Of a DNA stretch of 64,000 nt, positions 30,337 to 49,240 are shown one piece after another (within the stretch, counting starts at the first letter, position 1; each line of letters starts with the position of its first letter). The position numbers and the translations under genes are program-made. The notes under the pieces are model-generated. The model ran no database searches. It saw nothing but the letters and a program-made list of their open reading frames with translations, and was not told where the DNA came from. Source of the DNA: an uncultured Acidobacteriota bacterium (GTDB taxonomy: Bacteria; Acidobacteriota; Thermoanaerobaculia; Gp7-AA8); contig CAVUKB010000005.1 in NCBI GenBank assembly GCA_963741955.1, forward strand, positions 640,001 to 704,000, read 5' to 3'.

Positions 30337-30364
30337 GGCCGCGTCGGACCGACGGCATCCCGGA

Positions 30365-31464
30365 GGAGCGCCGGCATCCCCAGGAGCGCCGGCATCCCTG
30401 CCGGCTCGTGACGAGCGCCCCGTGCTCGTCACCTTCTTCGCACGATCCTCCGACGCAAGAATCCCAGCACTCCCGAGATCCTCGCGGTCAGGCGCAGAGG
30501 CCTGACCGCAGCCGGCTTGAGGCCGGCATCCCCAGGAGCGCCGGCATCCCTGCCGGCTCGTGACGAGCATCCCGTGCTCGTCACTTCATTTCGCGCACGA
30601 TCCTCCGACGCAAGAATCCCAGCACTCCCGAGATCCTCGCGGTCAGGCGCAGAGGCCTGACCGCAGCCGGCTTGAAGCCGGCATCCCCAGGAGCGCCGGC
30701 ATCCCTGCCGGCTCGTGACGAGCATCCCGTGCTCGTCACTTCATTTCGCGCACGATCCTCCGACGCAAGACTCCTCAGCACTCCCGAGATCCTCGCGGTC
30801 AGGCGCAGAGGCCTGACCGCAGCCGGCTTGAAGCCGGCGCCCCCAGGAGCGCCGGCATCCCTGCCGGCTCGTGACGAGCATCCCGTGCTCGTCACTTCAT
30901 TTCGCGCACGATCCTCCGACGCAAGAATCCCAGCACTCCCGAGATCCTCGCGGTCAGGCGCAGAGGCCTGACCGCAGCCGGCTTGAAGCCGGCATCCCCA
31001 GGAGCGCCGGCATCCCTGCCGGCTCGTGACGAGCATCCCGTGCTCGTCACTTCATTTCGCGCACGATCCTCCGACGCAAGAATCCCAGCACTCCCGAGAT
31101 CCTCGCGGTCAGGCGCAGAGGCCTGACCGCAGCCGGCTTGAAGCCGGCGCCCCCAGGAGCGCCGGCATCCCTGCCGGCTCGTGACGAGCATCCCGTGCTC
31201 GTCACTTCATTTCGCACACGATCCTCCGACGCAAGAATCCCAGCACTCCCGAGATCCCTCGCGGTCAGGCGCAGAGGCCTGACCGCAGCCGGCTTGAGGC
31301 CGGCATCCCCAGGAGCGCCGGCATCCCTGCCGGCTCGTGACGAGCATCCCGTGCTCGTCACTTCATTTCGCGCACGATCCTCCGACGCAAGAATCCCAGC
31401 ACTCCCGAGATCCTCGCGGTCAGGCGCAGAGGCCTGACCGCAGCCGGCTTGAAGCCGGCGCCCC
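30365..31464. repeat. Tandem array of 7 REPIN/BIME-like units (152-156 bp)
   Basis: Units start at 30383, 30535, 30690, 30846, 31001, 31156, 31312; each carries GGAGCGCCGGCATCCCTGCCGGC plus three further hairpins. Confidence 0.95.
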
Positions 31465-31503
31465 TCCGCTTCATTCCGACCTATGCGATCATAGGCGCCG
31501 GCC

Positions 31504-32898: not shown

Positions 32899-32942
32899 GG
32901 CGTGGGGCGAGCGGCGGCGTATGAACCGCCGTCATCTCCACA

Positions 32943-33190
32943 GGAGCGCCGGCATCCCTGCCGGCTCGTGACGAGCATCCCGTGCTCGTCACTTCCTTTC
33001 GCGCACGATTCCTCGACGCGAGAATCCACAGCACTCCCGAGGATCCCTCGCGGTCAGGCACGGAGGCCTGACCGCAGCCGGCTTGAAGCCGGCGCCCCTC
33101 GGGCAGCCCGCATCTCCACAGGAGCGCCGGCATCCCTGCCGGCTCGTGACGAGCATCCCGTGCTCGTCACCTCCTTTCGCGCACGATTCT
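32943..33190. repeat. About 1.4 copies of the same REPIN unit (178-bp period)
   Basis: GGAGCGCCGGCATCCCTGCCGGC at 32943 and 33121. Confidence 0.92.
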
Positions 33191-33206
33191 TTGTTGTCAG
33201 TCTTCT

Positions 33207-34220
33207 CTACACCACCCGACCCACCGCCGGCACGATGATCCGCAGTTCGTCCATCAGCTGCGCGAACTGATCCGGGTAGAGCGACTGGGGACCGTCGCAG
33301 AGCGCATGCTCCGGTTCGTGGTGGACTTCGATCAGCAGACCGTCCGCCCCCGCCGCGACGCTCGCGCGGGCGAGCGGCATCACCTTGTCCCGGCGCCCCG
33401 TGGCGTGGGAGGGGTCGGCGATGATCGGGAGATGGGAGAGCTTCTGCACCACCGGGATCGCCGAGATGTCGAGCGTGTTCCGCGTATACGTCTCGAACGT
33501 CCGGATGCCCCGCTCGCAGAAGATCACCTCGTAGTTGCCGCCGTTCATGATGTACTCACTCGCCAGCAGCCACTCCTGAATGGTCGCCGACATTCCGCGC
33601 TTGAGGAGTACCGGCTTGCGGATCTCGCCGAGCGCCGCCAGGAGGTTGAAGTTCTGCATGTTGCGCGCACCGACCTGAAAGATGTCGACGTACGGCATCA
33701 TCGCTTCGATCTGCCGGATCTCCATCACCTCGGAGACGGTGGCCATCCCGAACTCGTCACCGGCGGCGCGGAGGATCTTCAGCCCGTCCACCCCCATCCC
33801 CTGGAACGAATAGGGAGAGGTGCGCGGCTTGTAGGCCCCGCCGCGAAGGATCTTCGCGCCGGAGCGCGCCACCCGTGACGCCGTCTCGAAGACCTGCCTC
33901 TCGTTCTCGATGGTGCACGGCCCGGCCATGATCACCACTTCCGGCCCGCCGATCTTCACCCCGCGAACGTCGATGATCGTCTTCTCGCGCTTGAACGTTC
34001 GGCTCGCGAGTTTGTACGGTTCACTCACCCGGACTACTTCCTGGACTCCGTGGTACAACTCGAACTCCCTCTGGTCGAGCGTCTCGACCTTTCCGACGAC
34101 GCCGAGCACCGTCTGTTCGGATCCGGTGGAACGATGTACGTCGAAACCCCGCTCGGTGAGGTCTCCGACGACTTTTTCGATCTCTGCTTCCGTTGCGCTC
34201 TTTTCCATAACAATGACCAT
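33207..34220 (-). CDS. aroF: 3-deoxy-7-phosphoheptulonate (DAHP) synthase, type I-beta
   Basis: N-terminal regulatory domain, MAGPC, RGGAYKPRTSPYSFQG, GARNMQNF, LLKRG, DPSHATG. Confidence 0.95.
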   Translation of the reverse strand: MVIVMEKSATEAEIEKVVGDLTERGFDVHRSTGSEQTVLGVVGKVETLDQREFELYHGVQEVVRVSEPYKLASRTFKREKTIIDVRGVKIGGPEVVIMAGPCTIENERQVFETASRVARSGAKILRGGAYKPRTSPYSFQGMGVDGLKILRAAGDEFGMATVSEVMEIRQIEAMMPYVDIFQVGARNMQNFNLLAALGEIRKPVLLKRGMSATIQEWLLASEYIMNGGNYEVIFCERGIRTFETYTRNTLDISAIPVVQKLSHLPIIADPSHATGRRDKVMPLARASVAAGADGLLIEVHHEPEHALCDGPQSLYPDQFAQLMDELRIIVPAVGRVV

Positions 34221-34221
34221 G

Positions 34222-34530
34222 TCACTCGTCCACTTCCCTTTCGACCCGTCTCGATTCGTCGATGATCCGCTCGAAGAGTCTCCGCATGGTGATCGGCTCG
34301 AGCGGACCCTCCGACCACTTCTCGACATTTGCGAGAACTTCCTTCTCTCGTTCGGGAACGTAGATCGGCTCCTCGATTGCGCGCTTGATCTGACCGATCT
34401 CCACTGCGTACTTCGCTCGCTGATTCAGCAGCTTCACCAGCACTTCGTCCACTTTGTCGATGGCCGTACGTAGTCTGCGCAACTCGTTGTGAGCGGCGTC
34501 CGGCTCGAGATTCCGCGCGTTCCGGTTCAT
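34222..34530 (-). CDS. Chorismate mutase (AroQ type)
   Basis: LRRLRTAIDKVDEVLVKLLNQRA...IG.IK...IYVPERE...IIDESR. Confidence 0.9.
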   Translation of the reverse strand: MNRNARNLEPDAAHNELRRLRTAIDKVDEVLVKLLNQRAKYAVEIGQIKRAIEEPIYVPEREKEVLANVEKWSEGPLEPITMRRLFERIIDESRRVEREVDE

Positions 34531-35317
34531 GGCGCCTCCCCGTTCAGAATCTCCCGAACCGCACGTCCCGCTCGCTCCGCGGCGCCGGCCACTTCTCCCT
34601 GGTCGATCGCGCGCACGATGGCGCTTCCGACCACCACCGCATCGCACAGGGGTGCGAGCGTCCGATACTGTTCGTGTGTCGAGACTCCGAAGCCCACCGC
34701 GAGCGGTTTCTTCAACGCGAGCCTCACCTCCCGGAGCCGCTGGACCAGACCCGGATCGAGCTCGCGCCGCGCCCCCGTCACGCCGTTCGTCGAAACGTAG
34801 TAGACGAAGCCGTCACTCATCTTCCCCACCAGAGCCATCCGTCTGTCCGTCGACGTGGGAGCGAGGAGGAACACCGAACCGATCCCGCACCCGTCGAGGT
34901 GCCGTTTCAGATCTCCTGCCGATTCCGGGGGAAGATCGGTCACCAGCACCGAATCGATGCCGGCGCCGGCTGCGTCGGCGGCGAACCGCTGGTACCCGTA
35001 GCGGTGGATCGGGTTGAGGTACGAAAAGAGGACGAGCGGAATCTCACTCCCGCTCCGAACGCGGCGCGCGACCCCGAGCACGTCCGCCATCGTCGTTCCA
35101 CGCTCCAGAGATCGTTGCGATGCGGCCTGAATCACCGGACCGTCCGCGATCGGGTCGGAGAAAGGAACCCCGAGCTCGATGCAGGACGCACCGCTCCGTT
35201 CCAGTTCGCGGACGATTCCGACCGTCGTCTCCGGATCGGGGTCGCCGCAGGTCACGTACGCCACCAGACCGCATTTCCCGTTTCTCTTCAGCTCGCGAAA
35301 CTGCTTCGTCACCCGGT

Positions 35318-35321
<4 letters not shown>
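34527..35321 (-). CDS. trpA: Tryptophan synthase alpha subunit
   Basis: [40 protein letters not shown]. Confidence 0.97.
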
Positions 35322-36513
<1,192 letters not shown>

Positions 36514-36517
<4 letters not shown>

Positions 36518-37188
36518 CGACTCTCCTTCGCCGCCGCGACGAAGCGACGGATCTTCTCTCGATCCTTGATCCCTGCTGCCGACTCCACTCCGGTCGAGAC
36601 GTCCACTCCGTCCGGCCGGGCGATCCGGATCGCTTCGCCGACATTGTCGGGGGTCAGCCCTCCAGCGACGAAGAACGGCCGGTCCGAGATCCCACGCACC
36701 AGCTCCCAATCGAACGTCACTCCGGTCCCTCCCCAAGTGGTGCGGCCGTCTCGGTCGCATCTCCTGTCGTCTCGAGAACCCTCGGATGCGACCGGGACGG
36801 TCGCACCACTTGCCGTGTCATACAGCAACCACTCCCCAACCATGCCATCCACTACCGGCACCCTCTCCCCCACCCGCACGGCGCGGATCACCGGCCGCTG
36901 GATCAACCGTGCGACGTCGTCGCTCTCCTCACCGTGCAACTGCACGAGGTCGAGGCCGACTCCGTCCGCCACTCTGTTGATCTCTTCCGCCGCCGTGTTC
37001 CGGAAGACTCCGACCACATGGACGGCCGCGCCGGTCAGAGCCGCGACGACCTCCGATGCGCACCTCTCCGTCACCATCCGTTTCGACCCGGTCGCAAACA
37101 CCATCCCGACCATGTCTGCACCCGCTTCGACCGCCGCGAGCGCGTCTTCGAGGCGGGTGATTCCGCAGATCTTCACCAGCGTATCCAT
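36514..37188 (-). CDS. trpF: Phosphoribosylanthranilate isomerase carrying an in-frame palindromic insertion
   Basis: [41 protein letters not shown]. Confidence 0.95.
36734..36812. repeat. REP doublet (28-bp inverted arms) inside trpF
   Basis: CAAGTGGTGCGGCCGTCTCGGTCGCATC (36734-36761) pairs with GATGCGACCGGGACGGTCGCACCACTTG (36785-36812), two G-T wobbles. Confidence 0.88.
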
Positions 37189-37994
37189 CACTCCTCCCCC
37201 GCGCCTCGATTCACGAGCCCGCGCACCGCAGCGACCCGATCGTCGTTCCGGAGAAGAGATTCTCCGACCAGAAACGCGTCGAACCCTGCATTCAGAAGAC
37301 GATCGACGTCGGCCCGAGTCCGGATCCCGCTCTCGGAGACGCGCACGACGTCCTCGGGAATCCCGCGCACCAGCCTTTCCGATGTTTCCAGATCGACGGA
37401 AAAGTCGCGAAGGTCGCGATTGTTGACTCCGATGATCTTCGCGCCGCATTCGAGTGCGACGTCGAGCTCCGTCTCGTCGTGCACCTCCACCAGCGCATCA
37501 CATCCATAGCCGGCGATGCGGGCGAGGAGCTCTCTCAGTCGAAGCGGAGTGAGAATCGCGACGATCAGCAGAAGGGCATCCGCTCCGGCCGCCACACCGA
37601 GGTCGATCTGCTGCGGTTCGACGATGAAGTCCTTCATCACCACCGGCCTTCCCGAAGCCTCCGCTGCCACGGCGATCCACGTTCTCGAGCCGCGAAAGAA
37701 CTTCGGCTCGGTGACGATGGAGATTGCCGCAGCGCCGCCTTCGCGATAACCCGTGGCGATCGCGGCGACGTCGGGATCGTGGACGATCGTTCCGGCGGAG
37801 GGAGAGGCCGCCTTGATCTCGGCGATGAGACGTGCCGCGGAGGCCTCGCGTCCGCGGGACAGCGCGTTGTGGAAGCGAAACGAGTCTCTCTCTCCCACCA
37901 CGAGCTCCGCTTCGCGGCTCAGACGCGCGAGATCGGGCGCCGGATCGAGCCCGGCCCGCGTCTCGGTGACGATTCGCGAAAGGACCGTGTTCAC
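37188..37994 (-). CDS. trpC: Indole-3-glycerol phosphate synthase
   Basis: IAEIKAASPSAG, ISIVTEPKFF.G, KDFI, LVEVH, GVNNRDL, SESGI, LVGESL. Confidence 0.96.
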   Translation of the reverse strand: MNTVLSRIVTETRAGLDPAPDLARLSREAELVVGERDSFRFHNALSRGREASAARLIAEIKAASPSAGTIVHDPDVAAIATGYREGGAAAISIVTEPKFFRGSRTWIAVAAEASGRPVVMKDFIVEPQQIDLGVAAGADALLLIVAILTPLRLRELLARIAGYGCDALVEVHDETELDVALECGAKIIGVNNRDLRDFSVDLETSERLVRGIPEDVVRVSESGIRTRADVDRLLNAGFDAFLVGESLLRNDDRVAAVRGLVNRGAGEE

Positions 37995-39019
37995 TGCGCG
38001 GCCTCCTCGAGCTCACTCGACGCGACGACGAGCGCGTCGAGACGGGATGCCGCACGACCGGAATCGATCGACTCGGCAGCGGCACGCACTCCTTCGCGAA
38101 TGCCGGAGACGAGACCGGCCACGTAAAGCGCCGCGCCTGCGTTCGCGAGAACGATCTCGCGTGCCGCCCCTTGCGCGCCGTCCAGGACTTCCCTCGCGAT
38201 GCGGGCGTTGGTCGTCGCGTCGCCGCCGCGAAGCTGCTCGATCGGATGGGGGATCACTCCCATCTCCTGTGGAGTCAGCTCGTATTCGATGATCGCCCCC
38301 CCCCGCAACTCCGCCACTCGCGTGCGGCCGGAGATGGAGATCTCGTCGAGTCCTTCCTCGCTGTGGACGACCATCGCGTGCTCCGCCCCGAGCGTACGCA
38401 GTACGGAAGCGAGGATCGGAACCAGCTCCGGAGCAAAGACACCGATCACCTGGCGGCGCGCCCGTGCGGGGTTGGTCAGCGGCCCCAGTACGTTGAAGAT
38501 CGTCCGCACGCCGAGTTCACGCCGGACCGGCGCCATCGCCGCCATCGCGGGATGGAGCTTCGGGGCGAACAGAAACGAGATCCCGGTCCGCTCGAGAACG
38601 GACGTCATCTGTTCGGCATCGAGGTTGATGTTCACTCCGAGAGCGGTGAGTACGTCCGCACTTCCGCAGGACGACGAGACCGCGCGATTTCCGTGCTTCG
38701 CGACGCGCGCTCCCGCCCCCGCCGCGACGAATGCGGCAACCGTGGAGATGTTGAACGTTCCCGCGCCGTCTCCGCCGGTCCCGCACGTGTCGATCAACCC
38801 ATCCGCCTCGACCCGGAGCGAGATCACTCTCTCGCGCATTGCGGTCGCCGCTCCCGCAATCTCGTCCGGCGTCTCTCCCTTCATCTTCAACGCCACGAGG
38901 AGTGCGCTCTTCTGGACATCCGAGACTTCTCCGTCCATCACTTCCGAGAAGACGCCCTGCATCTCGTCGAGCGAGAGGTGGCTCCCCGACATCACCTTGC
39001 GTATCGATCCTCCGATCAT
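37991..39019 (-). CDS. trpD: Anthranilate phosphoribosyltransferase
   Basis: DTCGTGGDG..TFNIST, KHGNRAVSSSCGSAD, RTIFNVLGPLTNP. Confidence 0.97.
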   Translation of the reverse strand: MIGGSIRKVMSGSHLSLDEMQGVFSEVMDGEVSDVQKSALLVALKMKGETPDEIAGAATAMRERVISLRVEADGLIDTCGTGGDGAGTFNISTVAAFVAAGAGARVAKHGNRAVSSSCGSADVLTALGVNINLDAEQMTSVLERTGISFLFAPKLHPAMAAMAPVRRELGVRTIFNVLGPLTNPARARRQVIGVFAPELVPILASVLRTLGAEHAMVVHSEEGLDEISISGRTRVAELRGGAIIEYELTPQEMGVIPHPIEQLRGGDATTNARIAREVLDGAQGAAREIVLANAGAALYVAGLVSGIREGVRAAAESIDSGRAASRLDALVVASSELEEAAQ

Positions 39020-39591
39020 GAGAGACCTCCGATGCGGCAGAAATTCGCGATGAGACGGTCCCCCTCCGTCGTGCCGTAGGACTCGGGGTGAAACTGGATT
39101 CCGAAGATCGGACGTGTACGGTGCGACACCGCCATCACGCATCCGTCGTCGGTGGCTGCGTCGACCTCCAGGCCGGCCGGAAGGGTCGCAGCATCGGCGA
39201 CGAGGGAGTGGTAGCGCGTGGCCCGGAAGGGATTGGTGCAGCCGTCGAACAGCCGCCGCCCCTGATGACGGATCGAATCCACTTTCCCGTGCACCGGCTC
39301 CGGCGCGCGAACGATCTCCGCGCCGAACGCTTCCGCGATCGCCTGATGCCCGAGGCAGACGCCGAGGAGCGGCGTGCCGTCGAGATGGCGGACGAGATCG
39401 ACGATCTTCCCCGCATGCGACGGCGTTCCCGGCCCGGGAGAGATCACGATCGCGTCGGGATTCGATGCGAGGAGCGCGTCGATCTCGAACTCGTCGTTTC
39501 TCACCACCTCGACGCGACGCCCGGAGACGACTTCGATCTGCTGCACCAGGTTCCAGGTGAACGAGTCGTAGTTGTCGATCATGGCGATCAT
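39016..39591 (-). CDS. trpG: Anthranilate synthase component II
   Basis: IDNYDSFT, ISPGPG, GVCLGHQ, RYHSL, QFHPES. Confidence 0.95.
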   Translation of the reverse strand: MIAMIDNYDSFTWNLVQQIEVVSGRRVEVVRNDEFEIDALLASNPDAIVISPGPGTPSHAGKIVDLVRHLDGTPLLGVCLGHQAIAEAFGAEIVRAPEPVHGKVDSIRHQGRRLFDGCTNPFRATRYHSLVADAATLPAGLEVDAATDDGCVMAVSHRTRPIFGIQFHPESYGTTEGDRLIANFCRIGGLS

Positions 39592-41105
39592 CGCGCCACC
39601 TCCTGGAGTGCTTTCTCGCCGCTCCGGCGTCTCTCGGCGACCGCGGCTGCGACGCCGATCGCGCGACGCAGCGCGGCCGACTTGTTCACCGTCTCGACGT
39701 GCTCCCGCTCCGGATCGGAGTCGTAGACGATTCCCGCGCCTGCCTGCACGTACGCCTTCCCTCCGCTCATCACCACGGTGCGGATCGCAATGCAGGAGTC
39801 GAGATTTCCGGAGAAGCCGATGTAGCCGACCGCGCCGGCGTACGGTCCGCGACGCACCGGTTCGAGGCCGTCGATCAGCTCCATCGCGCGGATCTTCGGC
39901 GCACCGCTGACCGTTCCGGCAGGGAACGCGGCGAGGAAGCAGTCGATCGGCGTCCGGTCGTTCCGGAGTCTCCCCCGAACGACGCTCACCAGATGCATCA
40001 CGTGGCTGTAACGCTCGATCGCGCGGAACTGCGTCACTTCGACCGAACCGCTCTCGCAGACCCGCCCGAGATCGTTCCGTCCGAGATCCACCAGCATCAG
40101 GTGCTCGGCATTTTCCTTGGCGTCGGCGAGGAGCTCGGCCGCGAGCCGCGCGTCCTCTTCCTCCGTCGCTCCGCGCGGCCGCGTGCCGGCGATCGGACGC
40201 GTCTCGGCGAGCCGACCGTCGACGCGCACCAGCATCTCCGGCGACGAGCCGACCAGCGAGAGCTCACCGGTGCGGAAGAGGAACATGTACGGAGACGGGT
40301 TGATCCCCCGCAATGCGCGATAGAGGGTCAGGTCTTCCGATTGAGGAAGATCGCACTCCCATCGCTGCGAGAGAACGATCTGGAAGACCTCGCCCGCGGC
40401 GATGGCTTCCTTTGCACGCACTACCGCCTCCTGGAACTCTCCCGCCGCATGCGTGGAGCGGACCGCGACCGGCTCGCCGACGTCGCCGGAGACGAAGAGG
40501 TCCACCCGCGCGTCGTGCAGCCTTTCCACGATCGCGTCGAGCCGCGCATTCGCCCGCTCCAGGAGCACCGCACCCGGCTCCGGCGCGTCACTGAAGATGT
40601 TCGCGACGACGTAGAGCTGCTGCCGTACTTGATCGAATGCGAGCACCTGATCGAAAAAGAGAAGCGTCGCGTCGGGAAGCCCGAGGTCGTCCGTGCGCGT
40701 GTCGGGGATGCGCTCGCTCCATCCGGCGATCCCGTAGCCGAAGAACCCCACCGCACCGCCGAAGAAAGGCGGGAGCGCCTCTTCGTTCCAGACCCGCAGC
40801 GGCACGAGCTCTTCGCGAAGCGTCGCGACCGGACTCTTCGTGTCGGGTCCGAACGAGAGCGTCTTCCGCGGCGCGACGCCGATGAACGAATACCGCCCCA
40901 TGCTCTCGCCCCGCTCCACGCTCTCCAGAAGGAACGCTTCAGGCGCGAGCGACGAGAGCGCGGCGAACGCCGCCACAGGGGTGATGGTGTCCGCCCCGAG
41001 CAGCCGCACCACCGGGATGACGTCGTACTCCCGCCGCAGCGCATCGACCCGTTCCGGGGTCAGTGCTCCGTTTTTCGGGTACACCTCTCCTCTGCTCGTT
41101 TTCAT
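39588..41105 (-). CDS. trpE: Anthranilate synthase component I
   Basis: FLLESVE, NPSPYM, GSSPE, PIAGTRPRG, EHLMLVDLGRND, PAGTVSGAPK, QAGAGIV. Confidence 0.96.
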   Translation of the reverse strand: MKTSRGEVYPKNGALTPERVDALRREYDVIPVVRLLGADTITPVAAFAALSSLAPEAFLLESVERGESMGRYSFIGVAPRKTLSFGPDTKSPVATLREELVPLRVWNEEALPPFFGGAVGFFGYGIAGWSERIPDTRTDDLGLPDATLLFFDQVLAFDQVRQQLYVVANIFSDAPEPGAVLLERANARLDAIVERLHDARVDLFVSGDVGEPVAVRSTHAAGEFQEAVVRAKEAIAAGEVFQIVLSQRWECDLPQSEDLTLYRALRGINPSPYMFLFRTGELSLVGSSPEMLVRVDGRLAETRPIAGTRPRGATEEEDARLAAELLADAKENAEHLMLVDLGRNDLGRVCESGSVEVTQFRAIERYSHVMHLVSVVRGRLRNDRTPIDCFLAAFPAGTVSGAPKIRAMELIDGLEPVRRGPYAGAVGYIGFSGNLDSCIAIRTVVMSGGKAYVQAGAGIVYDSDPEREHVETVNKSAALRRAIGVAAAVAERRRSGEKALQEVAR

Positions 41106-41173
41106 CGATTCATCCCCAGACTTCCCCGGCCGCTAAATTCGAGGTCCGATATTCGAGATCCGAAATCTCTCCG

Positions 41174-42451
41174 TCATTCCTCCAGAAACTGCTCCACCGT
41201 CAATTCCCGTTGTTCCCCCGTCTTCAGATCCTTCACCGTGACCGTCCCCTTCGCCACTTCATCCGCTCCGACGATCACTGCAGACGTGGCCCCCGAATTC
41301 GCCGCCGCTCTCAACGCTTTCCCCACTGCCGGCTCGCCATACGGAGAGACCACCGACTTTCCTCCGCGCCGAAGCCGAGCGACGATCGAGAGCGTCGCGG
41401 CGCGATTCCCTCCCCCGCCGGTGATGGCGAAGACGTCGACCCGCTTCGATTGCGTCGCGGCGAGGCCACGATCCTTCAGCAGTTCGCCGAGCACCACGTC
41501 GCCGAAGCCGAACCCGAGGGCCGGGACGTCGATGGCGGCGAGCGAGGAGAAGAGGCGATCGTAACGGCCGCCGCCGCAGATCGCACGGAGCTCGCCCTTC
41601 CGGTCGAAGATCTCGAAGACGATTCCGGTGTAGTACGCGAGACCGCGGACGATCTTCATGTCGAACTGGATCCAGTCGCCGAAGCCGAGTGCTCCGAGTG
41701 CTTCCTCGTACTGCCGAAGATCTTCGAGCACCTGCTCGAACTCCGGATGTCCGGCGTAGCGCGAGGTGATCTCTTCGAGCGAAAGGCTGGTCAGACCGAG
41801 CGCGTTTTCCGCGGCTTCCGGCGACAATCCGATCTCACGAAGTCTCTGGACGCAGACCTCGCGCGGATCGCGCTCGACCTTGTCGATCACGTTGTACGCC
41901 GTCGGGAGGTTCTCTTCCGACACGCCGAGGTCCGTGAGAGCGGCGTGGAGGAGCCGACGGTCGGAGTAGCGCGCCACGACGTCGTCCGCGGTGAGCCCGA
42001 GGGTCCGGAGGACGTCGAGCGCTGCGGCGACGAGATCGGCGTCGGCGAGGACCGACTCCTCCCCGATGATGTCCATGTTCAGCTGGAAATGCTCGCGGAG
42101 ACGGCCGCGCTGCTGTTTCTCGTAGCGGAAGAGCTGCGGCATGGAGAACCAGCGGACCGGACGCGGCAGCCCCTTGATGCGCGCGCCGAGCATCCGTACC
42201 AGCGTCGGCGTCATCTCGGGACGGAGCGCGACCTCGCGCCCTCCCTTGTCGGTGAAGTTGAAGAGCTGGTTGACGATCTCCGGGCCGGACTTCTCGATGT
42301 AGAGCTCGAGCGCTTCGAGCGGCGGGCCGTCGTACTCCTCGAACCCGTATCGCCGCGCGACGTCCTTCCATGCTCCGAAGATCTGATTCCGCCGGGCCAT
42401 CTCTTCCGGATAGAAATCGCGGAATCCCGGCAGTGCTGCATGCTTCGCCAT
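41174..42451 (-). CDS. hisS: Histidine--tRNA ligase
   Basis: LPGFRDFYP, ALRPEMTP, FRYEKQQRGRLREHFQ, VRGLAYYTG, GGGRYD, C-terminal anticodon domain; ATG overlaps aroDE TAA. Confidence 0.95.
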   Translation of the reverse strand: MAKHAALPGFRDFYPEEMARRNQIFGAWKDVARRYGFEEYDGPPLEALELYIEKSGPEIVNQLFNFTDKGGREVALRPEMTPTLVRMLGARIKGLPRPVRWFSMPQLFRYEKQQRGRLREHFQLNMDIIGEESVLADADLVAAALDVLRTLGLTADDVVARYSDRRLLHAALTDLGVSEENLPTAYNVIDKVERDPREVCVQRLREIGLSPEAAENALGLTSLSLEEITSRYAGHPEFEQVLEDLRQYEEALGALGFGDWIQFDMKIVRGLAYYTGIVFEIFDRKGELRAICGGGRYDRLFSSLAAIDVPALGFGFGDVVLGELLKDRGLAATQSKRVDVFAITGGGGNRAATLSIVARLRRGGKSVVSPYGEPAVGKALRAAANSGATSAVIVGADEVAKGTVTVKDLKTGEQRELTVEQFLEE

Positions 42452-43962
42452 TACGACTCCTTCTTCACGGTCGCGACCGCGTCGCGCCGCAGAACTGAAG
42501 TGAACAGATCGAACTGTCGGAGAGCCTGGGCTCTCAGGAAATCCATCCCGTCGAACGTCTTCGCTCCCGCGGCGTGCGCGGCGTCGAGCGCCGGCCGCGG
42601 CGTGGTGCCGTATGCGACGTCGACGTAAAGGACGCCGCGTCTCAGAAGGGAACGTGGGATCTCGACGCCGGCGGACGCCGGAAGCGTGTTGATCACCACG
42701 TCCGCATCCGCTGCCCGCAGCACGTCGAGCGAGGCGGAGCGGATTCCGAACTCCGACGCGAGCGATGCGGCTCGCGACGCAGTCCGGTTGTACAGAGTCG
42801 CCTCGAGGCCGTGTCGCCGGATCGCGACGAGCGCCGCGCGTGCGGTGCCGCCGGCTCCGATCACCGTCACCCGCGTGCCGTGCACCATCGCGAGTGCAGT
42901 GTTGAACCCGTCGACGTCGGTGTTCATCGCGACGACGGAGATCGTGCCCTCCTCGTTGCGTTTCCGCAGGAGCGTGTTCACGGCGCGGCACGCGAGAGCG
43001 TTCTCGCCGATCGTCGCGCGCGCGCCGAGGGAGCGCGCGAACTCGAACGCCCGCTCCTTGTAGGGTGCGGTGATGCTCACCCCGTCGGGCGTGTACGGCG
43101 CGCCGGAGAGCATGGCCCGTTCGATCTCGCCGAAGTCTTCCACTTCCGCGACGGTGTACGCCGCCGCCAGCTTCCTCTGCTGGAGCCGCGGGTTGTGGAT
43201 CGACGGCGAGAGGCTGTGCGCCGCAGGAAGTCCGGTCACCGCGAAGATCGCGTCGGGGCGCGGAAGCGCGGCGAGCTCGGGACCGAAGATCGCAGCCGCG
43301 CGCTCGAGCGTCAGTTGGCCCGGCGCGGCGAGGGATGCGTCGTCCGCGGCGAGATACGTCAGCTCCGATCCGTAGAACGGCGCGAGAATCCGACTGTAGA
43401 GGCCTTTCGATCCCATCCCGAAGATGGTGGTTCCGCGCGGCGCGTCGTCGATCGCTTCGAGGAGGCGGATGTTGTCGTCCAGTGTGCGAGGAGTCGCGAC
43501 GAGCTTGATCCGTTCCGCGCCGGTGCGGCGCATCTCGGCGAGGAGCGTGTCGAGATCGGGAACGCCATCGAAGTCGTGAAACGAGAGAATGAGCCGCGGA
43601 GCGAGAGTCAATAGGCGATCACGATCCGCGTGGGAGCCGAATTCGAGATCGGCGAGATCGAAGCCCGCCTCGAGCGCCCGCTCGAGCTCCCCGATCTCAC
43701 TCCCTCCCATCCCCGCGGGTGATCTCCTCGTCGCGATGAGAAGGCGCGAGGTCGCGTTGCGAAGGGCGGCGAAATCGGGGAGGGCGCCGTTCGCGAACCG
43801 GTCGAGACGGATCTCGAATCCGTCCGCGCGGGCTTCGAGCTCGCCGATCCGTGCAATCGCCAGATCGACGGTCGGCTCGACGATCGAGACGATGCGGCGC
43901 GGCCGGACGTCGACCGGCGACGTCGCGGAAGGTCTCGAGCTCTGCGGATTGATCTCGTTCAA
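42451..43962 (-). CDS. Bifunctional type I 3-dehydroquinate dehydratase / shikimate dehydrogenase (AroD-AroE fusion; start uncertain)
   Basis: EIRLD, ILSFHDF, IKLV, MG..G..SR, APGQ (AroD); HSLSP.IHN, SITAPYKE, AVNT, NTDVDG, IGAGGTARA (AroE). Confidence 0.9.
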   Translation of the reverse strand: MNEINPQSSRPSATSPVDVRPRRIVSIVEPTVDLAIARIGELEARADGFEIRLDRFANGALPDFAALRNATSRLLIATRRSPAGMGGSEIGELERALEAGFDLADLEFGSHADRDRLLTLAPRLILSFHDFDGVPDLDTLLAEMRRTGAERIKLVATPRTLDDNIRLLEAIDDAPRGTTIFGMGSKGLYSRILAPFYGSELTYLAADDASLAAPGQLTLERAAAIFGPELAALPRPDAIFAVTGLPAAHSLSPSIHNPRLQQRKLAAAYTVAEVEDFGEIERAMLSGAPYTPDGVSITAPYKERAFEFARSLGARATIGENALACRAVNTLLRKRNEEGTISVVAMNTDVDGFNTALAMVHGTRVTVIGAGGTARAALVAIRRHGLEATLYNRTASRAASLASEFGIRSASLDVLRAADADVVINTLPASAGVEIPRSLLRRGVLYVDVAYGTTPRPALDAAHAAGAKTFDGMDFLRAQALRQFDLFTSVLRRDAVATVKKES

Positions 43963-43998
43963 ATGAAAAACCTCTTCAGGGTTTCCCGAGAAGAGGTC
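43961..43998 (-). terminator. Intrinsic terminator (attenuator) in the operon leader
   Basis: Minus strand GACCTCTTCTCGGG-AAA-CCCTGAAGAGGTT followed by TTTCATTT. Confidence 0.85.
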
Positions 43999-44068
43999 TG
44001 AACGTCGGCTGAATTTCTGTCCGTCGCGCCTCTACCCGGGTGACCAGGGGGCGCGGATACAGCGTCCC

Positions 44069-44125
44069 CTAGTGGGTCAGGTGCCACCACCAATAACCAA
44101 AAAAGGAGACGCGGGTGCAAGTCAT
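44069..44125 (-). CDS. trpL: Attenuator leader peptide MTCTRVSFFGYWWWHLTH
   Basis: Three tandem TGG codons upstream of alternative antiterminator/terminator hairpins, ahead of a trp operon. Confidence 0.85.
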   Translation of the reverse strand: MTCTRVSFFGYWWWHLTH

Positions 44126-44135
44126 GAGCTGCGAA

Positions 44136-44164
44136 AGATTAGCTACGCCCGCGACGGATGTCAA
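44136..44164 (-). promoter_or_regulatory. Sigma70 promoter TTGACA-N17-TAATCT for the leader and operon
   Basis: -35 at 44164-44159, -10 at 44141-44136, 17-bp spacer. Confidence 0.8.
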
Positions 44165-44435
44165 GCACCGCGTCGCGGACTCCGTCAGCCAACGCCGCAA
44201 TGGACCTACACGGCGCCGCCCCGCCACCAATCGACCGGAGATCTCTCCATTGCGCCATTGCCAACTCAGCACAACCCACGTCCCCGGCAGAAGCGGAGCG
44301 GGATCGCAAGACCCACCGACGCTCCGCGCACATCCACAACTCCCTCTTCATCGCGTACAACACCATCCACGCGGCAAATCCCGCCGAGCGGGATCCGCAC
44401 TCCTCGGCCGCAGCCGGGCCGCTATACTCGAACGG

Positions 44436-44915
44436 ATGAGCGACGCGACTTCCACCTCGATCACGGCTCGCCTCCGTACATGGCTCGACGCCGAAGGGGT
44501 GAGCTACCGCTTTGTCGAACATGAACCGACGCGGACGTCGGAAGAGTCCGCGGCTGCACGCGGCGAGCGGCTGGAGATCGGTGCGAAGGCGCTCCTGCTG
44601 AAGGCAGACGAGACGTTCGTTCTGATGGTCCTCAGCGCCGCGCGCAAGCTCGACTCCCACGCCGTCCGGAAGCACTTCGGTGCGAGCCGGCTCCGATTCG
44701 CGACTCGCGAAGAGCTCCTCGAGCGGACCGGCCTCCCCTCGGGTGCCGTTCCCCCATTCGGCCCTCCGATTTTCGATCTCCCCCTCTACATCGACCGCTC
44801 CGTCACCTCGAACGAGAAAGCGGCCTTCAACGCCGGAAGCCTCACCTGCTCGATCATCATGCCGACCGCCGACTATCTCCGCCTCGCCCGTGGGACGTTC
44901 GTCGACGTCACCTGA
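44436..44915 (+). CDS. YbaK/EbsC (ProXp-type) aminoacyl-tRNA editing domain protein
   Basis: EHEPTRTSEESA..RG.....GAKALLLK, RFAT.EEL...TG...GAVPPFG, FNAG. Confidence 0.88.
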   Translation: MSDATSTSITARLRTWLDAEGVSYRFVEHEPTRTSEESAAARGERLEIGAKALLLKADETFVLMVLSAARKLDSHAVRKHFGASRLRFATREELLERTGLPSGAVPPFGPPIFDLPLYIDRSVTSNEKAAFNAGSLTCSIIMPTADYLRLARGTFVDVT

Positions 44916-45140
44916 GGACTCGAGGTTCGAAGGTTCAAACCGCTCTCGATGGCGACAGGAGTGGCGACTCCCATCCTCTCACTTCACAGAAGAAAATGCG
45001 GCCAATGCGTAGATTCGCAGAATAATATTCTGTGGCGCCGCACTTTACGCGCATTTTGTTGCGTGTACCGAACGAGGCCATGAATCCTTCGGGACCGTCT
45101 CCGTCAGATTTCACCCGATGACCAGGAGATTCATCCGTAG

Positions 45141-45336
45141 TCGATCCTCGATCCCCGATCCTCAATCCTCAATCCTCAATCCTCAATCCTCGATCCTCGA
45201 TCCTCGATCCTCGATCCCCGATCCTCAATCCTCAATCCTCAATCCTCGATCCTCGATCCTCGATCCCCGATCCTCAATCCCCGTTCCTCGATCCTCGATC
45301 CTCAATCCTCGATCCTCGATCCCCGGTCCTCGATCC
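45141..45336. repeat. Heptamer tandem repeat (GATCCTC/AATCCTC/GATCCCC)n, about 28 units
   Basis: Directly visible; overlaps the 3' end of the SSS gene. Confidence 0.95.
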
Positions 45337-46779
45337 TCTGCGGCGCGCTCTCGACTCGACCACGACCGCCGCGCCGTATGCCAGGGCTGCGGCGATCGCT
45401 GCAACGAGGATGTATCCGAGGCCCGATGTCCGCACCGACGCCGGTTCGATCACGCCGAGCCACCCTCGCGATTCGGCGAAATACGCGGCGAATGTCGCGA
45501 CGAAGCCGGTGATCGAAGACCAGCGGACGCCCGCGGCCGACACCTCGGGGGCAAATACCGCGGCGACGGGAAACGCGACGGCGGTGGTGAGAATCCCGCC
45601 GGAGAGATAGAAGATCGACCAGAGTGACTCGGTGTTCAGGGCGAACACGCACGCTGCAGCCATGACCCCGATCGTCACCCATCGCGACGTCCGGCTCGAC
45701 GCTGCGTTCTTCTGCACCTCGAGAAGGTCGTATGCGATCGCCAGTCCCATCACGTTCGCGCAGGTGTCGATGGTGCTCATCGCGGCAGCGACCAGCCCCG
45801 CCGCCACGAGCATCTCCAGCCAGGCCGGCGCGTAGCGCGTGACCAGGGCTGCGAAGATCGCGTCTCCCTCCTGCCCGATCGACGCGGGGATCGAGCCGTT
45901 GTGCAGCGGGAAGAGAACCAGCGCGGCGATGCCGATGAAGAGGGGGAGGATTCCGACGAACGCGATCGAGTTGAGCCCTGCGATGAGCACTCCCCGTCGC
46001 GCGTCGCGATCGCTCCGCGCCGCCTGGACCCGGAGCCAGAGATCGGTCTCGAAAAGCCATCCCGGCAGATATGCGACGAACGTGAGAATGATGATCGCGA
46101 CGCCCGGGGAAAAGAGAGAGGTCCAGCCGGTTCCCGACTTCGCGGCGTGCACCGATGCCGGAGGAATCAGCGGAGCGCCCGCGGCGTGAAGCCCACGCAC
46201 TGCGAGGATGCCCATCGCCACGATGTAGAGAACGACGATGACGTACTGCATCCGATCCGTATCGACCACCGCGCGGAATCCGCCGAGCGACGAATAGATC
46301 GCCACGACGAGGCTGATGCCGACGACGGTGGTCGGGATCGCGAGACCGAGCGGCGATGCGAGGAGCCGCGCAGCAACGTAGATCTCCGCGCCACCCCACA
46401 CCAGAAAGACCACCGCCAGCGAGATCGCGACGCTGACGCGGGCTCCCCGGCCGAACCTCGCGCCGACCATCTCCGGCTGACTGAAAGAGGGAAGCGCGTG
46501 GTAACGCCGTGCGAGAAGGTAGATGCCACCGAGACTGAGCACCCACGGAATCGTGATCAGCCAGACTGCACCGAGTCCGTACCAGTAGAACAGCTGTACG
46601 GCGTAGACGCACGACCACGACACGGACATGAATCCAGCGGACATCGAGAGGCCGACCGATCCGCCGCCGAGGCTGCGCCCCGCGGTCCAGAACTCTCCCG
46701 GATCCTCGGCGCGCCGGCTGGCGCGCCATCCGAGCGCAATCGCGGCGAGCGAGTAGAGTAGGACAGCGAGCCGGACCAA
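45274..46779 (-). CDS. Sodium:solute symporter family protein (start uncertain)
   Basis: EFWTAGRSL, YSSLGGFRAVVDTD, W.RVQAARS, AAAMSTID, many TM helices; C-terminus is repeat-encoded. Confidence 0.85.
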   Translation of the reverse strand: MVRLAVLLYSLAAIALGWRASRRAEDPGEFWTAGRSLGGGSVGLSMSAGFMSVSWSCVYAVQLFYWYGLGAVWLITIPWVLSLGGIYLLARRYHALPSFSQPEMVGARFGRGARVSVAISLAVVFLVWGGAEIYVAARLLASPLGLAIPTTVVGISLVVAIYSSLGGFRAVVDTDRMQYVIVVLYIVAMGILAVRGLHAAGAPLIPPASVHAAKSGTGWTSLFSPGVAIIILTFVAYLPGWLFETDLWLRVQAARSDRDARRGVLIAGLNSIAFVGILPLFIGIAALVLFPLHNGSIPASIGQEGDAIFAALVTRYAPAWLEMLVAAGLVAAAMSTIDTCANVMGLAIAYDLLEVQKNAASSRTSRWVTIGVMAAACVFALNTESLWSIFYLSGGILTTAVAFPVAAVFAPEVSAAGVRWSSITGFVATFAAYFAESRGWLGVIEPASVRTSGLGYILVAAIAAALAYGAAVVVESRARRRGSRTGDRGSRIEDRGSRNGD

Positions 46780-46976
46780 GATGAGGTGTTTTAGCGCAAC
46801 ATCGGGGGTCGTGTCGACACCATTCCTCGCGGCGCTCATCCTCGTCGTGTCGTGAGATGACCACGAAGCCAGCGGGGGCTTCGCGTTCGGGGAGCGAATC
46901 AAATCACGTCCTGCTGGCGTGATCGTTTCCATGTCGTCGGGCTCGTTGTCCGTGGCGCTCACGAATTCCCGAAGGC

Positions 46977-47173
46977 GGACGTCTTCGGACGACGATCAGT
47001 CCGCGGAACGAACACCACATCTGCAGCCCAGGGCGGCAGCCCTGGGACTGGAGATCCCGCGAAACAATGTGCGCAGTCCGCGTAGCGGACGTCACGGGTC
47101 GAGCCAGGATTCGAACAGGTCGCCCCAGGGCGCACGCGCTGGGCTACTCTTGTGCCGTCCACTTCGCGGACTC
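46977..47173. repeat. REP-like composite (CCCAGGGCGGCAGCCCTGGG; GTCC(A/G)CTTCGCGGAC)
   Basis: 71-bp near-identical block also at 51922-51992; related hairpin at 49126-49145. Confidence 0.8.
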
Positions 47174-47302
47174 GTCACACATCATTCGGCGCCACGCCAC
47201 GCACGCGCGAAGGCGATCATCGCGACCGCGAACGCGCCCCTGCCCGAGTCCGGCTGCGCCGCTGGAAGAACGCACCAGGAACCCTGTGTTATCGTCACAG
47301 CC

Positions 47303-47512
47303 ATGAAGGTCTACACGGCGGTCGTCGAGCGCTGTCCCGATACCGGTCTGTACGTCGGCTTCGTCCCCGGCTTTCCGGGTGCGCACAGCCAGGCAGAATC
47401 GCCGGAGGAACTGAACGCGAATCTTCGAGAAGTCATCGAGATGCTGCTCGAGGATGGCGAGCCTCACGTGCAGTCGGAATTCATCGGTACGCAGCTCGTT
47501 CGAGTGGGCTGA
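47303..47512 (+). CDS. hicB: HicB family antitoxin
   Basis: YTAVVE.CPDTGLYVGFVPGFPGAHSQAES.EEL..NLREVIEMLLE. Confidence 0.9.
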   Translation: MKVYTAVVERCPDTGLYVGFVPGFPGAHSQAESPEELNANLREVIEMLLEDGEPHVQSEFIGTQLVRVG

Positions 47513-47515
47513 GAA

Positions 47516-47626
47516 GCGCCGAAACTACCAGTCCTGAAACCTCGCGAGGTCGTCGCCGTTCTTGGGAAACTCGGCTTCGCCGAAGTCCGACAGCGCGGCT
47601 CACACAAGCAGTTTCGACACGGGGAT
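47516..47626 (+). pseudogene. hicA: HicA toxin remnant (no start codon; similarity lost after FRH)
   Basis: Reads APKLPVLKPREVVAVLGKLGFAEVRQRGSHKQFRHGD with the GSH motif; first codon is GCG; no VP.H..D..G.L segment follows. Confidence 0.75.
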
Positions 47627-47681
47627 CGATCCGTTGTGAACAGGGAAGAGGACCAGCGCGACGAGACCGCGCGGCCGGGCT

Positions 47682-49022
47682 TCATCGCTCTGTACGAGCT
47701 ACTCCGTTCGTCTTTCGGAACGACTGCTGGTCCGTGAGTCGCAACACCTCGGAGATCGCCAGGATCACCGCGCCGACTCCGTAGTTCACGTCCGCATTGA
47801 CGGATGTCACCACGTCACACGCCGGCCCGATTCCCGGAGGTTGGATCCCGCTGACCGAGCCGTCCGGAGCGATCCGGCCGAGGAGAACGCCGAAGGCCCG
47901 CATGACGACCGGCGCGTACGTCTCGCGGTCGAGCCAACCTTCGTTGATTCCGCGCGCGAGGAAGAACGTCAGTAAGCCGGTCGCCGAGGTCTCCGCGGAC
48001 GGACAGAAAGCAGGATCCGAAAGGCTCGCCCCCCATCCGCCGTCGGGCGTGCGCCGTGCCACGAGCGAAGACGCCATCCCTTTGAGAAGACCGCGGATCG
48101 CGGGGGCATCGACCACTTCGACGTACTGACTCCCTCCATACGGCGAGTCGAGCGCCTCGGCGGATCGCAGCAGCCCAACCGCGACCCACGCGTTCCCCCG
48201 GCCCCAGAATCGATCCGCTCCGCGATCCTCCGGCGCGTGGAAGAAGAGACCGGATTGATCATCGAAGAGAAGAAGGCCGTTGCGGGACGGATTCGTCGGA
48301 ACCGCCACGACCCGCGGATCGGAACTGGAGGGGCGATGGTCGTAGACGTAGGCCTCGATCCATTCGTAGGCGAGATCGCGCGCCAGCGGATCCGCGGGAA
48401 GACCCTCGCGCGACGACCCCGCCATCGCCAGCCAGGGAATGACCATGTACACGTCGTCCTCCCAGTAGCGCGTCCCGTATCCACCGGCGATCCACCAGGG
48501 GTCGCGCGGAGAGGTCTCGTCCGGGCGATCCCGGATCGCATGACGCGCGAACTCGGTCGGACCGGCGAGAAGCGCGACGAGCTGCGAACGACGCGCATCG
48601 CCGGCGGGGAGCACGCGCACCAGATCCATTGCGACCTGCGAGAACGCCGTGCCGTCGCCCCAGCTCACTGACTCGACGTCATCGTCGCTCTCGAGAATCA
48701 CTGCGGCCGCGCGTTCGATCAGAGCGTCTCCGCTCCCCGGCTGTTCGCGGTTCAGTTCCTCTCCGAGGAGCACGAGCCCGTCGAGGAACGGTGCGTTCTC
48801 CCAATGGAGGCGCGGCTGGAACTGATCGATCCGCGCACTCTCCGCGACACGCACTGCGAGGTCGCGTATTGAGGCGCGCTGAGCGAGCGGATGCTCGACG
48901 GTCCGGTGCCGCGCGGCGAAGAGTGGGAGTGGCGATGCAACCACGAAGACGAGGGCACAGATGCCATGAGATCGGGCTCGGAAGAGGGCGGAGCACATCC
49001 TTTGCGCAGTTCGAGTCTTCAC
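47682..49022 (-). CDS. Secreted glycoside hydrolase family 88/105-like protein (start uncertain)
   Basis: WEDDVYM, SGLFFH, FWGRGNAW, ETSATG, YGVGA. Confidence 0.78.
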   Translation of the reverse strand: MKTRTAQRMCSALFRARSHGICALVFVVASPLPLFAARHRTVEHPLAQRASIRDLAVRVAESARIDQFQPRLHWENAPFLDGLVLLGEELNREQPGSGDALIERAAAVILESDDDVESVSWGDGTAFSQVAMDLVRVLPAGDARRSQLVALLAGPTEFARHAIRDRPDETSPRDPWWIAGGYGTRYWEDDVYMVIPWLAMAGSSREGLPADPLARDLAYEWIEAYVYDHRPSSSDPRVVAVPTNPSRNGLLLFDDQSGLFFHAPEDRGADRFWGRGNAWVAVGLLRSAEALDSPYGGSQYVEVVDAPAIRGLLKGMASSLVARRTPDGGWGASLSDPAFCPSAETSATGLLTFFLARGINEGWLDRETYAPVVMRAFGVLLGRIAPDGSVSGIQPPGIGPACDVVTSVNADVNYGVGAVILAISEVLRLTDQQSFRKTNGVARTER

Positions 49023-49240
49023 AGATCCACCTTTCCGTCGCCGTTTCGACCGCCCTACGCGTCAAGGGCCCACGGCCCGGGCCATTTAAGCCCGTTTCCC
49101 ACGGCTGACCCCTGGGCTATCTATATGCCGTCCGCTTCGCGGACTGGAGGTCGGACGACGCGCGATCACATTCCGGGCATCCCCGCGACATCGTGCGACT
49201 CATCTTAAGTCCCATCGAACCAAAGCGGACGTGAATGCCG

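Follow-up and report, generated by a model that had tools for sequence, protein, structure and literature searches.

In the trpL attenuator of Escherichia coli, a textbook case that PMC11802643 also mentions, a short leader open reading frame (ORF) with tandem Trp codons and a terminator precede the structural genes, and an antiterminator forms when the ribosome stalls. The enterobacterial his attenuator (hisL) is a relay of six RNA segments that pair either as A:B, C:D and E:F or as B:C and D:E. Multivalent enterobacterial leaders are exemplified by thrL (Thr and Ile) and by ilvL and ivbL (Ile, Val and Leu), and the Bacillus subtilis aromatic supraoperon, aro-trp-hisC-tyrA-aroE, is controlled by TRAP. 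A 64,000-nucleotide stretch of DNA from an uncultured bacterium of the class Thermoanaerobaculia in the Acidobacteriota (contig CAVUKB010000005.1, positions 640,001 to 704,000; hereafter the window) carries a leader on its minus strand with the peptide motif SFFGYWWWH, and behind it an operon with the gene order aroDE-hisS-trpEGDCFBA-chorismate mutase-DAHP synthase. The elements of this attenuator, their conservation and the match between its codons and the downstream genes confirm that it is real. We consider it probable that it is a leader-peptide (ribosome-mediated) transcription attenuator of the whole operon from aroDE to DAHP synthase that works as an OR gate over several aminoacyl-tRNA pools.

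The window's leader resembles E. coli trpL and the Rfam Trp_leader family in its ORF with Trp codons, its terminator and its predicted stall-dependent antiterminator. However, it has six segments rather than four, additional Phe, Tyr and His codons, almost no predicted 5' untranslated region (UTR) and no Rfam match, and its operon contains aroDE, hisS, chorismate mutase and DAHP synthase in addition to the trp genes. The relay topology, with three terminating and two read-through helices, is that of hisL, although the scaffold does not match Rfam His_leader and its control codons are mixed instead of forming a His run. As in thrL and ilvL or ivbL, one leader would serve several amino acids that are tied to its operon. 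Those amino acids share one branched pathway, whereas the window's leader would join the Trp regulon with those of Phe/Tyr, through the common pathway, and of His, through hisS or his genes, and close relatives have separate attenuators on this scaffold for the three. The B. subtilis supraoperon likewise places shikimate genes, trp genes and a his-related gene in one transcription unit, but its control is by an RNA-binding protein and not by a leader peptide, and its gene content differs.

Two further precedents concern single features of the locus. The aroR leader upstream of aroF in Corynebacterium glutamicum contains Phe-Tyr-Phe, and ribosome stalling on it controls the DAHP synthase operon (Neshat et al. 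2014, via PMC11802643). According to PMC11802643 it responds to Phe and not to Tyr, and it has no Trp or His codons. Although it belongs to another phylum, aroR is the nearest precedent for the Tyr/Phe-rich leaders described below. An aminoacyl-tRNA synthetase gene under a leader with cognate codons is found in the pheST attenuator of E. coli and in the His leader of bacilli upstream of a hisS paralogue and hisZ (PMC2965389). The window differs from these systems in that its hisS is internal to an aromatic and trp operon and its His codons are a minority in a mixed leader.

A first-pass annotation of the window had placed a TTGACA-N17-TAATCT promoter and an 18-codon leader ORF upstream of aroDE, and both are present in the sequence (Table 1). 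The promoter arrangement recurs in 24 of the 34 family leaders, scored as a -35 element with at least five of six matches to TTGACA that lies 16-18 nt from a TAnnnT -10 hexamer ending 6-12 nt before the ATG. The -10 hexamers of the family are TACTCT, TACCCT, TAACCT or TAATCT. A generic promoter scan of positions 40000-48000 returned nothing and passed over the leader promoter because TAATCT agrees with TATAAT in only three of six positions. The pattern TTGAC-N17-19-TAnnnT occurs twice in the window (0.51 expected), one occurrence being the leader promoter, and a promoter of this consensus-like form is not found between the attenuator and hisS. Since the -10 hexamer ends 10 nt before the leader ATG, and 6-12 nt before it across the family, the 5' UTR of the leader mRNA is probably very short or absent, and the leader probably lacks a Shine-Dalgarno sequence. 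Transcription would then start a few bases before the AUG. The attenuator locus occurs once in its genome.

The 181-nt leader has a folding energy of -71.2 kcal/mol, compared with -56.8 +/- 4.5 kcal/mol for dinucleotide shuffles (z = -3.24; 1 of 200 shuffles as stable), and its minimum-energy fold consists of three hairpins. The first, A:B (44112-44104 with 44070-62; -26.4 kcal/mol), encloses the control codons. The second is the C:D helix (44055-44 with 44040-25; -17.1 kcal/mol), and the third is the E:F terminator, a stem at 43998-43971 (-16.6 kcal/mol) that is followed by UUUUU at 43970-43966. Folding also yields two alternative helices, B:C (-14.0 kcal/mol) and D:E (-22.2 kcal/mol), so that the six segments can be divided into a terminating set (A:B, C:D and E:F) and a read-through set (B:C and D:E). 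Clustered control codons, an intrinsic terminator in front of the structural genes and an alternative helix that excludes this terminator are combined in one leader.

Both the antiterminator and the intrinsic terminator with its U-tract had been recognized in the first-pass annotation, and both hold up: CCCGGGUAGAGG (44040-44029) pairs with CCUCUUCUCGGG (43996-43985) at 11 of 12 positions, and the terminator has the stem and U-tract given above. The annotation also described a 1:2 protector helix of TGACC..TAGGGG with CCCCTGGTCA. This helix exists as B':C, but its predicted role is the opposite one, because pairing of B with C frees D from C and would promote read-through. The classical trpL architecture that had been assigned to the leader is not borne out. 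The A:B hairpin and the strongly conserved C:D helix had been missed, and the window's fold does not fit the four-segment scheme in which 1:2 and 3:4 alternate with 2:3.

We infer the following switch from these pairings, including the order in which the helices form, the transcription start, the Shine-Dalgarno role of the F arm and all physiological responses. A ribosome that reaches the stop codon would cover B, which would allow C:D and E:F to form and RNA polymerase to terminate at the U-tract. If no ribosome is loaded, A:B, C:D and E:F would all form and termination would again result. If a ribosome instead stalls on a hungry codon within F8-F9-G-Y11-W12-W13-W14(-H15), then B would remain free and B:C would form first. 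This pairing would release D to form D:E, which would block the terminator and permit read-through, and in that state the F arm, the probable ribosome-binding site of aroDE, would remain open. Several aminoacyl-tRNA pools would thus feed into the leader as into an OR gate. Trp would be its universal signal, a Phe/Tyr signal would be tied to the common pathway and to the module of chorismate mutase and DAHP synthase, and a His signal would serve the single-copy hisS, more weakly in the window's genome.

Footprint models, in which the RNA is masked up to 12 nt past the first base of the A-site codon, were used only to place the window's codons and not as proof of switching. B:C forms and D is free for stalls at codons 4-12 and 14, or at codons 3-14 when the segment limits are set slightly differently. 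Masking the ribosome at each codon in this way puts part of the proposed Phe/Tyr/Trp/His cluster within reach of the switch: F8, F9, Y11 and W12-14 fall inside the modeled stall window, but H15 lies at its edge and H18 is outside. Each of these codon types is matched by genes of the operon. With the mask set for a ribosome on the last Trp codon, seven or more bases of the E arm find upstream partners in 20 of 24 leaders.

Comparison with relatives shows that the leader and its helices are conserved. Of 41 related genomes, 34 encode the aroDE protein, at no more than 49% identity, and 80 further aroDE loci were taken from Thermoanaerobaculia or Acidobacteriota metagenome-assembled genomes. A short ATG-started ORF that contains WW or HWH and ends 40-260 nt upstream of aroDE is present at 31 of 86 non-duplicate loci, and at most of the remaining loci aroDE is preceded by another gene. 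In an alignment of 21 of these leaders the GCGCCCC core of segment C is nearly invariant. The terminating helices pair in 94.2% of 396 alignment cells, compared with 47-68% when slid by 1-3 columns, and 6 of their 19 pairs have changes on both sides, a count equaled by 3 of 500 shuffles. Within this set, E:F pairs in 93.2% of cells, with five pairs changed on both sides. The read-through helices pair in 93.3% of 269 cells as opposed to 50-71% when slid, and D:E by itself in 93.0%. Their covariation score exceeds that of the shuffles (1/500), while their count of both-sided changes is not above shuffles (167/500). Because the structures were derived from the same 21 sequences, the slide control favors them.

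A covariance model (R1) of the 21 trp-type leaders, the window's among them, spans the stop codon through the U-tract and extends the family to other operons. It gives exactly two strong hits in the window's genome: the window's leader (52.2 bits, E = 3.6e-11), a member of the training set, and a copy outside the training set at C10:246339-246447 (53.4 bits). This second copy belongs to a His paralogue (C10:246240-246450, plus strand; locus L132:1400-1610) that has a TTGACA-N17-TACTCT promoter and precedes hisZ-hisG. Its leader reads HH-S-L-HHH and contains no Trp, Phe or Tyr. Matches at E <= 0.001 occur in 26 of the 41 genomes (23 of 24 in family f1, both genomes of f3 and 0 of 14 in other families), with one to three scaffold copies per genome in f1 and f3. 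Of 43 matches, 38 start on TAG, TAA or TGA. The leaders of L148, L155 and L156, which do not start on a stop codon, were left untyped for codons.

When the 43 matches are typed by their downstream gene, they fall into three groups. Seventeen trp-type matches precede aroDE (aroDE-trpE where the operon is split) and carry Trp codons. Fourteen his-type matches precede hisZ-hisG-hisD-hisC, and the 13 resolved leaders have 5-7 His within their last 16 codons. The 12 aro-type matches are all followed by chorismate mutase and then DAHP synthase. Ten of their leaders are resolved (L146, L152, L153, L154, L157, L161, L162, L170, L171 and L174, at about 1400-1600 in each locus), and these have 4-7 Phe and Tyr within the last 16 codons, often as [FY][FY]YGY[FY]. 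The chorismate mutases of this group are 62-72% identical to the window's, with one at 42%, and the DAHP synthases are 77-83% identical over the full length in 11 cases, with one contig-truncated match at 71%. Of the 23 resolved leaders of the His and Tyr/Phe kinds, 22 contain no Trp. In the remaining leader, a his-type copy before hisZGD (L165; G006 C45), the sequence HHHLAWHH contains the sole Trp. Genomes such as G002, G008 and G011 have all three specialized copies; in them the trp-type leader comprises 12-15 codons and contains WW or WWW, flanked by no more than one Phe or Tyr. In one arrangement the scaffold lies between hisS and trpE and not ahead of aroDE (L087:7314-7414, contig G022:C386; an unpublished genome whose publication needs the depositors' permission), which would leave aroDE-hisS outside its control. 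No other statement made here depends on genomes flagged as unpublished.

It is very improbable that the ORF merely arose by chance next to an ordinary terminator or a structured 5' UTR and that no leader peptide senses anything. Such a reading could draw on the Rfam searches: at E <= 10, no leader family (Trp_leader, His_leader, T-box or riboswitch) matches positions 30000-50000 of the window or five loci that cover all three attenuator types. The comparison comes close to refuting it, because conservation extends to the ORF, to its stop codon located where the scaffold begins, to the spacing of the promoter and to the alternative helices, and the paralogous copies carry codon runs that match their own operons. 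A scaffold that starts at the stop codon of a short ORF and has no Rfam match is also not what a T-box or riboswitch would present.

The terminator arm raises the possibility of a mainly translational switch, in which E:F hides the aroDE ribosome-binding site, the leader opens it, and termination is secondary or absent. The GAAGAGG of the terminator 3' arm is purine-rich and lies 8 nt before the aroDE TTG, and it probably doubles as the Shine-Dalgarno sequence of aroDE, in which case translation would be under the switch as well. In 23 of the 43 family members a long ORF begins 4-12 nt past the 3' arm, as judged by a crude rule, and 7 of the 31 trp-type leaders have no run of four or more T after the hairpin. 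We nonetheless judge this alternative improbable as a replacement for attenuation of transcription: the window has a five-U tract directly after a -16.6 kcal/mol stem, and a run of T follows the hairpin in the other 24 of the 31 leaders. The two modes are compatible, so translational control would add a layer to the attenuator more than replace it. Five copies (L039, L079, L080, L084 and L104) keep the E:F hairpin without a run of at least four T and have a start codon just past the arm, and these may act on translation only.

The codon content of the leaders follows the gene content of the operons. Nine genomes have hisS after aroDE (G000, G001, G005, G009, G010, G013, G024, G026 and G027), and six have chorismate mutase-DAHP synthase after trpA (G000, G001, G005, G010, G013 and G027). 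Separate aro-type copies occur in none of the nine hisS-merged genomes but in 12 of the 16 other genomes with R1 matches, and his-type copies in two of the nine compared with 12 of the 16 (G022 was left out of this comparison). Leaders of merged genomes have a hybrid layout of a Tyr/Phe cluster, Gly, Trp codons and His codons, of which the window's SFFGYWWWH is one example. It looks like the Tyr/Phe motif SFYYGYY to which Trp codons, behind the Gly, and a His have been added.

These differences can be expressed as residue counts. Phe and Tyr make up 17 of 99 residues in the six leaders whose operons include chorismate mutase-DAHP synthase, compared with 18 of 337 in other trp-type leaders and a background of 5.4% in the operon proteins (Fisher p = 4.7e-4). 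His accounts for 39 of 243 residues in merged leaders as opposed to 4 of 193 in split leaders, with a background of 1.6% (p = 4e-7). At least two Phe or Tyr codons are present in five of the six leaders merged with chorismate mutase-DAHP synthase but in only 1 of 25 other trp-type leaders. In G009, DAHP synthase is present without chorismate mutase, and the leader (HLHEGWW) has no Phe/Tyr cluster. More distant mixed leaders are HHHYGWWHH (f3), GWWGFVHHH (f7) and RHWHVHH (f10), and in all three families a whole his operon lies between aroDE and trpE.

Two observations on individual relatives may be added. In L043 (G027), L045 (G031) and L046/L047 (G034/G038), the genes between aroDE and trpE are hisZ, G, D, C, B, H and A/F, which creates an aro-his-trp supraoperon of 17-19 kb behind a mixed His and Trp leader. 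In L037 (G024 C1), the tblastn matches to trpB and trpA are each broken into three pieces in different frames, which are probably assembly frameshifts.

The enrichments must be weighed against the possibility that the leader is a Trp-only attenuator, whose Phe, Tyr and His codons are leftovers from earlier leaders or earlier states of the operon, or constraints of RNA structure, with no present regulatory effect. Several observations count against multi-amino-acid sensing and most of them favor this alternative. Only the Trp codons, among the Phe, Tyr, Trp and His codons of the proposed cluster, are universal in the 31 trp-type leaders. A tree of aroDE puts all loci of the split aroDE-trpE type into a single derived clade (69 rows, support 100), with the merged types as a deeper grade. 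This leaves one independent contrast for his/hisS and one to three for chorismate mutase-DAHP synthase, with which independent-pairs tests cannot reach significance. The few contrasts and the single derived split clade mean that the Fisher p values overstate the support. The operon of L035 holds hisS but its leader has no His codon, and that of L033 has His only at codon 3. The leader of G006 has one His, at codon 2, and this genome probably also has hisS in the operon (the locus is split over two contigs). Specialized leaders have 5-7 control codons, but the window's leader has only three for Phe/Tyr and one that is usable for His. Finally, the CAC that follows the Trp run pairs with GGUG in the minimum-energy fold of the naked RNA, so an RNA-level reason for keeping it is possible.

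The models of the switch add further points on the same side. Stalls at codons 15-18 and at the stop codon give C:D and do not free D, which places the His codons at or past the stall window, and W13 flips in one version of the footprint model. The stop-codon state is poorly reproduced, since the truncated RNA mostly prefers D:E and both criteria hold in 3 of 24 leaders. An equilibrium model that scores whether C is paired with D when D has just been transcribed never frees D in 10 of 27 leaders. Given the weakness of these equilibrium models, the switch must be kinetic and rest on the order of helix formation, as it does in classical attenuators. The last His of specialized His leaders lies 2-4 codons ahead of the stop codon, which means that the family does use position -4. 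By the footprint model, a His at this position is effective in the His paralogue of the same genome but not in the window's leader.

Against a Trp-only attenuator, Phe and Tyr are enriched about threefold only when chorismate mutase-DAHP synthase is in the operon and are at background elsewhere. The window's cluster has the [FY][FY]-G layout of the specialized Tyr/Phe leaders that control that very module, and a separate Tyr/Phe attenuator is found in none of the nine merged genomes. Both the Phe/Tyr and the His enrichments also persist over long branches, across deep lineages, where other leader residues have turned over. We therefore regard Trp-only control as unlikely, though it deserves more weight than the other alternatives, and retain the OR-gate attenuator as the probable explanation. 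Multi-amino-acid sensing is well supported by the comparison of relatives. Within it, sensing of Trp is near certain and sensing of Phe/Tyr is likely. Sensing of His by the window's leader is plausible but weak, with H15 as the sole codon for it, and H18 is most likely ineffective as a control codon in the models. The four-input leader mirroring its operon that the first-pass annotation had proposed is upheld in that codon content tracks gene content in relatives and three specialized paralogues exist, but its His input is the weakest of the four.

Table 1. Coordinates of the leader, its RNA segments and the operon genes in the 64,000-nt window.
Feature	Coordinates	Strand	Basis or remark
-35 hexamer TTGACA	44159..44164	-	read in sequence; 17-nt spacer to -10
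-10 hexamer TAATCT	44136..44141	-	ends 10 nt before leader ATG
Leader ORF MTCTRVSFFGYWWWHLTH, 18 codons + TAG	44069..44125	-	ATG at 44125, TAG 44071-44069
Control-codon block F8 F9 G10 Y11 W12 W13 W14 H15	44081..44104	-	footprint model
Segment A GCGUCUCCU	44104..44112	-	pairs with B in untranslated RNA
Segment B/B' UGACC..UAGGGGACGC	44062..44079	-	last leader codons and stop codon; partner A or C
Segment C CGCGCCCCCUGG	44044..44055	-	partner B or D
Segment D CCCGGGUAGAGGCGCG	44025..44040	-	partner C (anti-antiterminator) or E (antiterminator)
Segment E GACCUCUUCUCGGG, terminator 5' arm	43985..43998	-	folding
Segment F CCCUGAAGAGG, terminator 3' arm and U-tract 43970-43966	43966..43981	-	folding
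aroDE, fused type I 3-dehydroquinase and shikimate dehydrogenase	42451..43962	-	Pfam PF01487, PF08501, PF01488
hisS, histidyl-tRNA synthetase	41174..42450	-	ATG directly after aroDE TAA
trpE	39588..41105	-	Pfam
trpG	39016..39591	-	Pfam
trpD (start approximate)	37991..39019	-	Pfam
trpC	37188..37994	-	Pfam
trpF (start approximate)	36514..37176	-	Pfam
trpB (start approximate)	35318..36520	-	Pfam
trpA (start approximate)	34527..35300	-	stop overlaps chorismate mutase ATG (ATGA)
Chorismate mutase type II, 102 aa	34222..34530	-	PF01817, 84.7 bits
DAHP synthase with N-terminal ferredoxin-like domain	33207..34220	-	PF00793, PF18152

Pfam scans and the junction sequences establish the gene order behind the attenuator, and the genes that the first-pass annotation had listed for the operon (aroDE, hisS, trp genes, chorismate mutase and the DAHP synthase aroF) were correctly identified. 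The aroDE gene starts on TTG 43962 and has 503 codons. The operon's hisS (321.5 bits) is the sole match above the hisS cut-off in a genome that is 99.1% complete. The runner-up, at 121 bits, lacks the anticodon-binding part and is hisZ-like. A second DAHP synthase paralogue is encoded outside the window (C5:19597-20604, plus strand; locus L182) and is 47% identical to the operon copy, and paralogues like it (48-51% identity) are also present in G001, G005, G024 and G026.

Other features of the window and genome were noted in passing. A gene at 44115-44915 on the plus strand diverges from the leader promoter region, and its product carries an aminoacyl-tRNA editing domain (PF04073, at residues 136-257 in the longest ORF); the gene probably begins in reality near 44450-44520. 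Two weak matches to the Acido-Lenti-1 RNA, at 47019-47046 (minus strand, 25.6 bits) and 47124-47172 (plus strand, 22.7 bits), fall below the gathering score of 37 and have a sodium:solute symporter gene on one side and a GH88 gene on the other. At 30373-31414 on the minus strand, four weak and nearly identical Rfam matches (three at 21.2 bits and one at 20.4), with successive starts 152, 466 and 311 nt apart, point to repeated DNA. A crude genome-wide scan for leaders followed by terminators returned mostly noise and did not pick up the attenuator in the window. One of its hits, a Thr-rich peptide before thrS at C1:62547, looked attractive but was not accepted as a leader, as the terminator there follows two tRNA genes.

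The mechanism proposed here is classical attenuation, and what appears to be new is the codon mix and a scaffold that serves three regulons, though a prior description may exist. In the full-text literature covered, with most subscription journals and supplements outside that coverage, we found no description of attenuators in Thermoanaerobaculia, of a leader combining Trp, Phe/Tyr and His codons, of one scaffold serving three regulons, or of a Tyr/Phe leader on this scaffold heading chorismate mutase-DAHP synthase. Comparative surveys by Lopatovskaya, Seliverstov and Lyubetsky, one of them cited in PMC4833913, may bear on this novelty. A more specific picture, for which we see roughly even prospects, is that of a modular cassette in two Thermoanaerobaculia families whose specificity would be set by the leader codons alone, with codon sets that would merge or separate as operons fuse or split. 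In the window this cassette would be a three- to four-input sensor that feeds back on the cell's only HisRS and uses its terminator arm as a ribosome-binding site.

To our knowledge, leader-peptide attenuation has been documented almost only in Proteobacteria, Actinobacteria and a few Firmicutes. The leaders described here are a well-defined attenuator family in a class of Acidobacteriota that is rich in uncultured members. They form a natural series in which one RNA scaffold carries Trp, His, Tyr/Phe or mixed codons that track operon content, and with this series the co-evolution of leader codons with operon fusion becomes directly testable. With an essential, single-copy aminoacyl-tRNA synthetase gene behind an amino acid attenuator, one may ask how a basal level of the enzyme is ensured. 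Another potential use of the cassette is as a compact, programmable sensor with several inputs.

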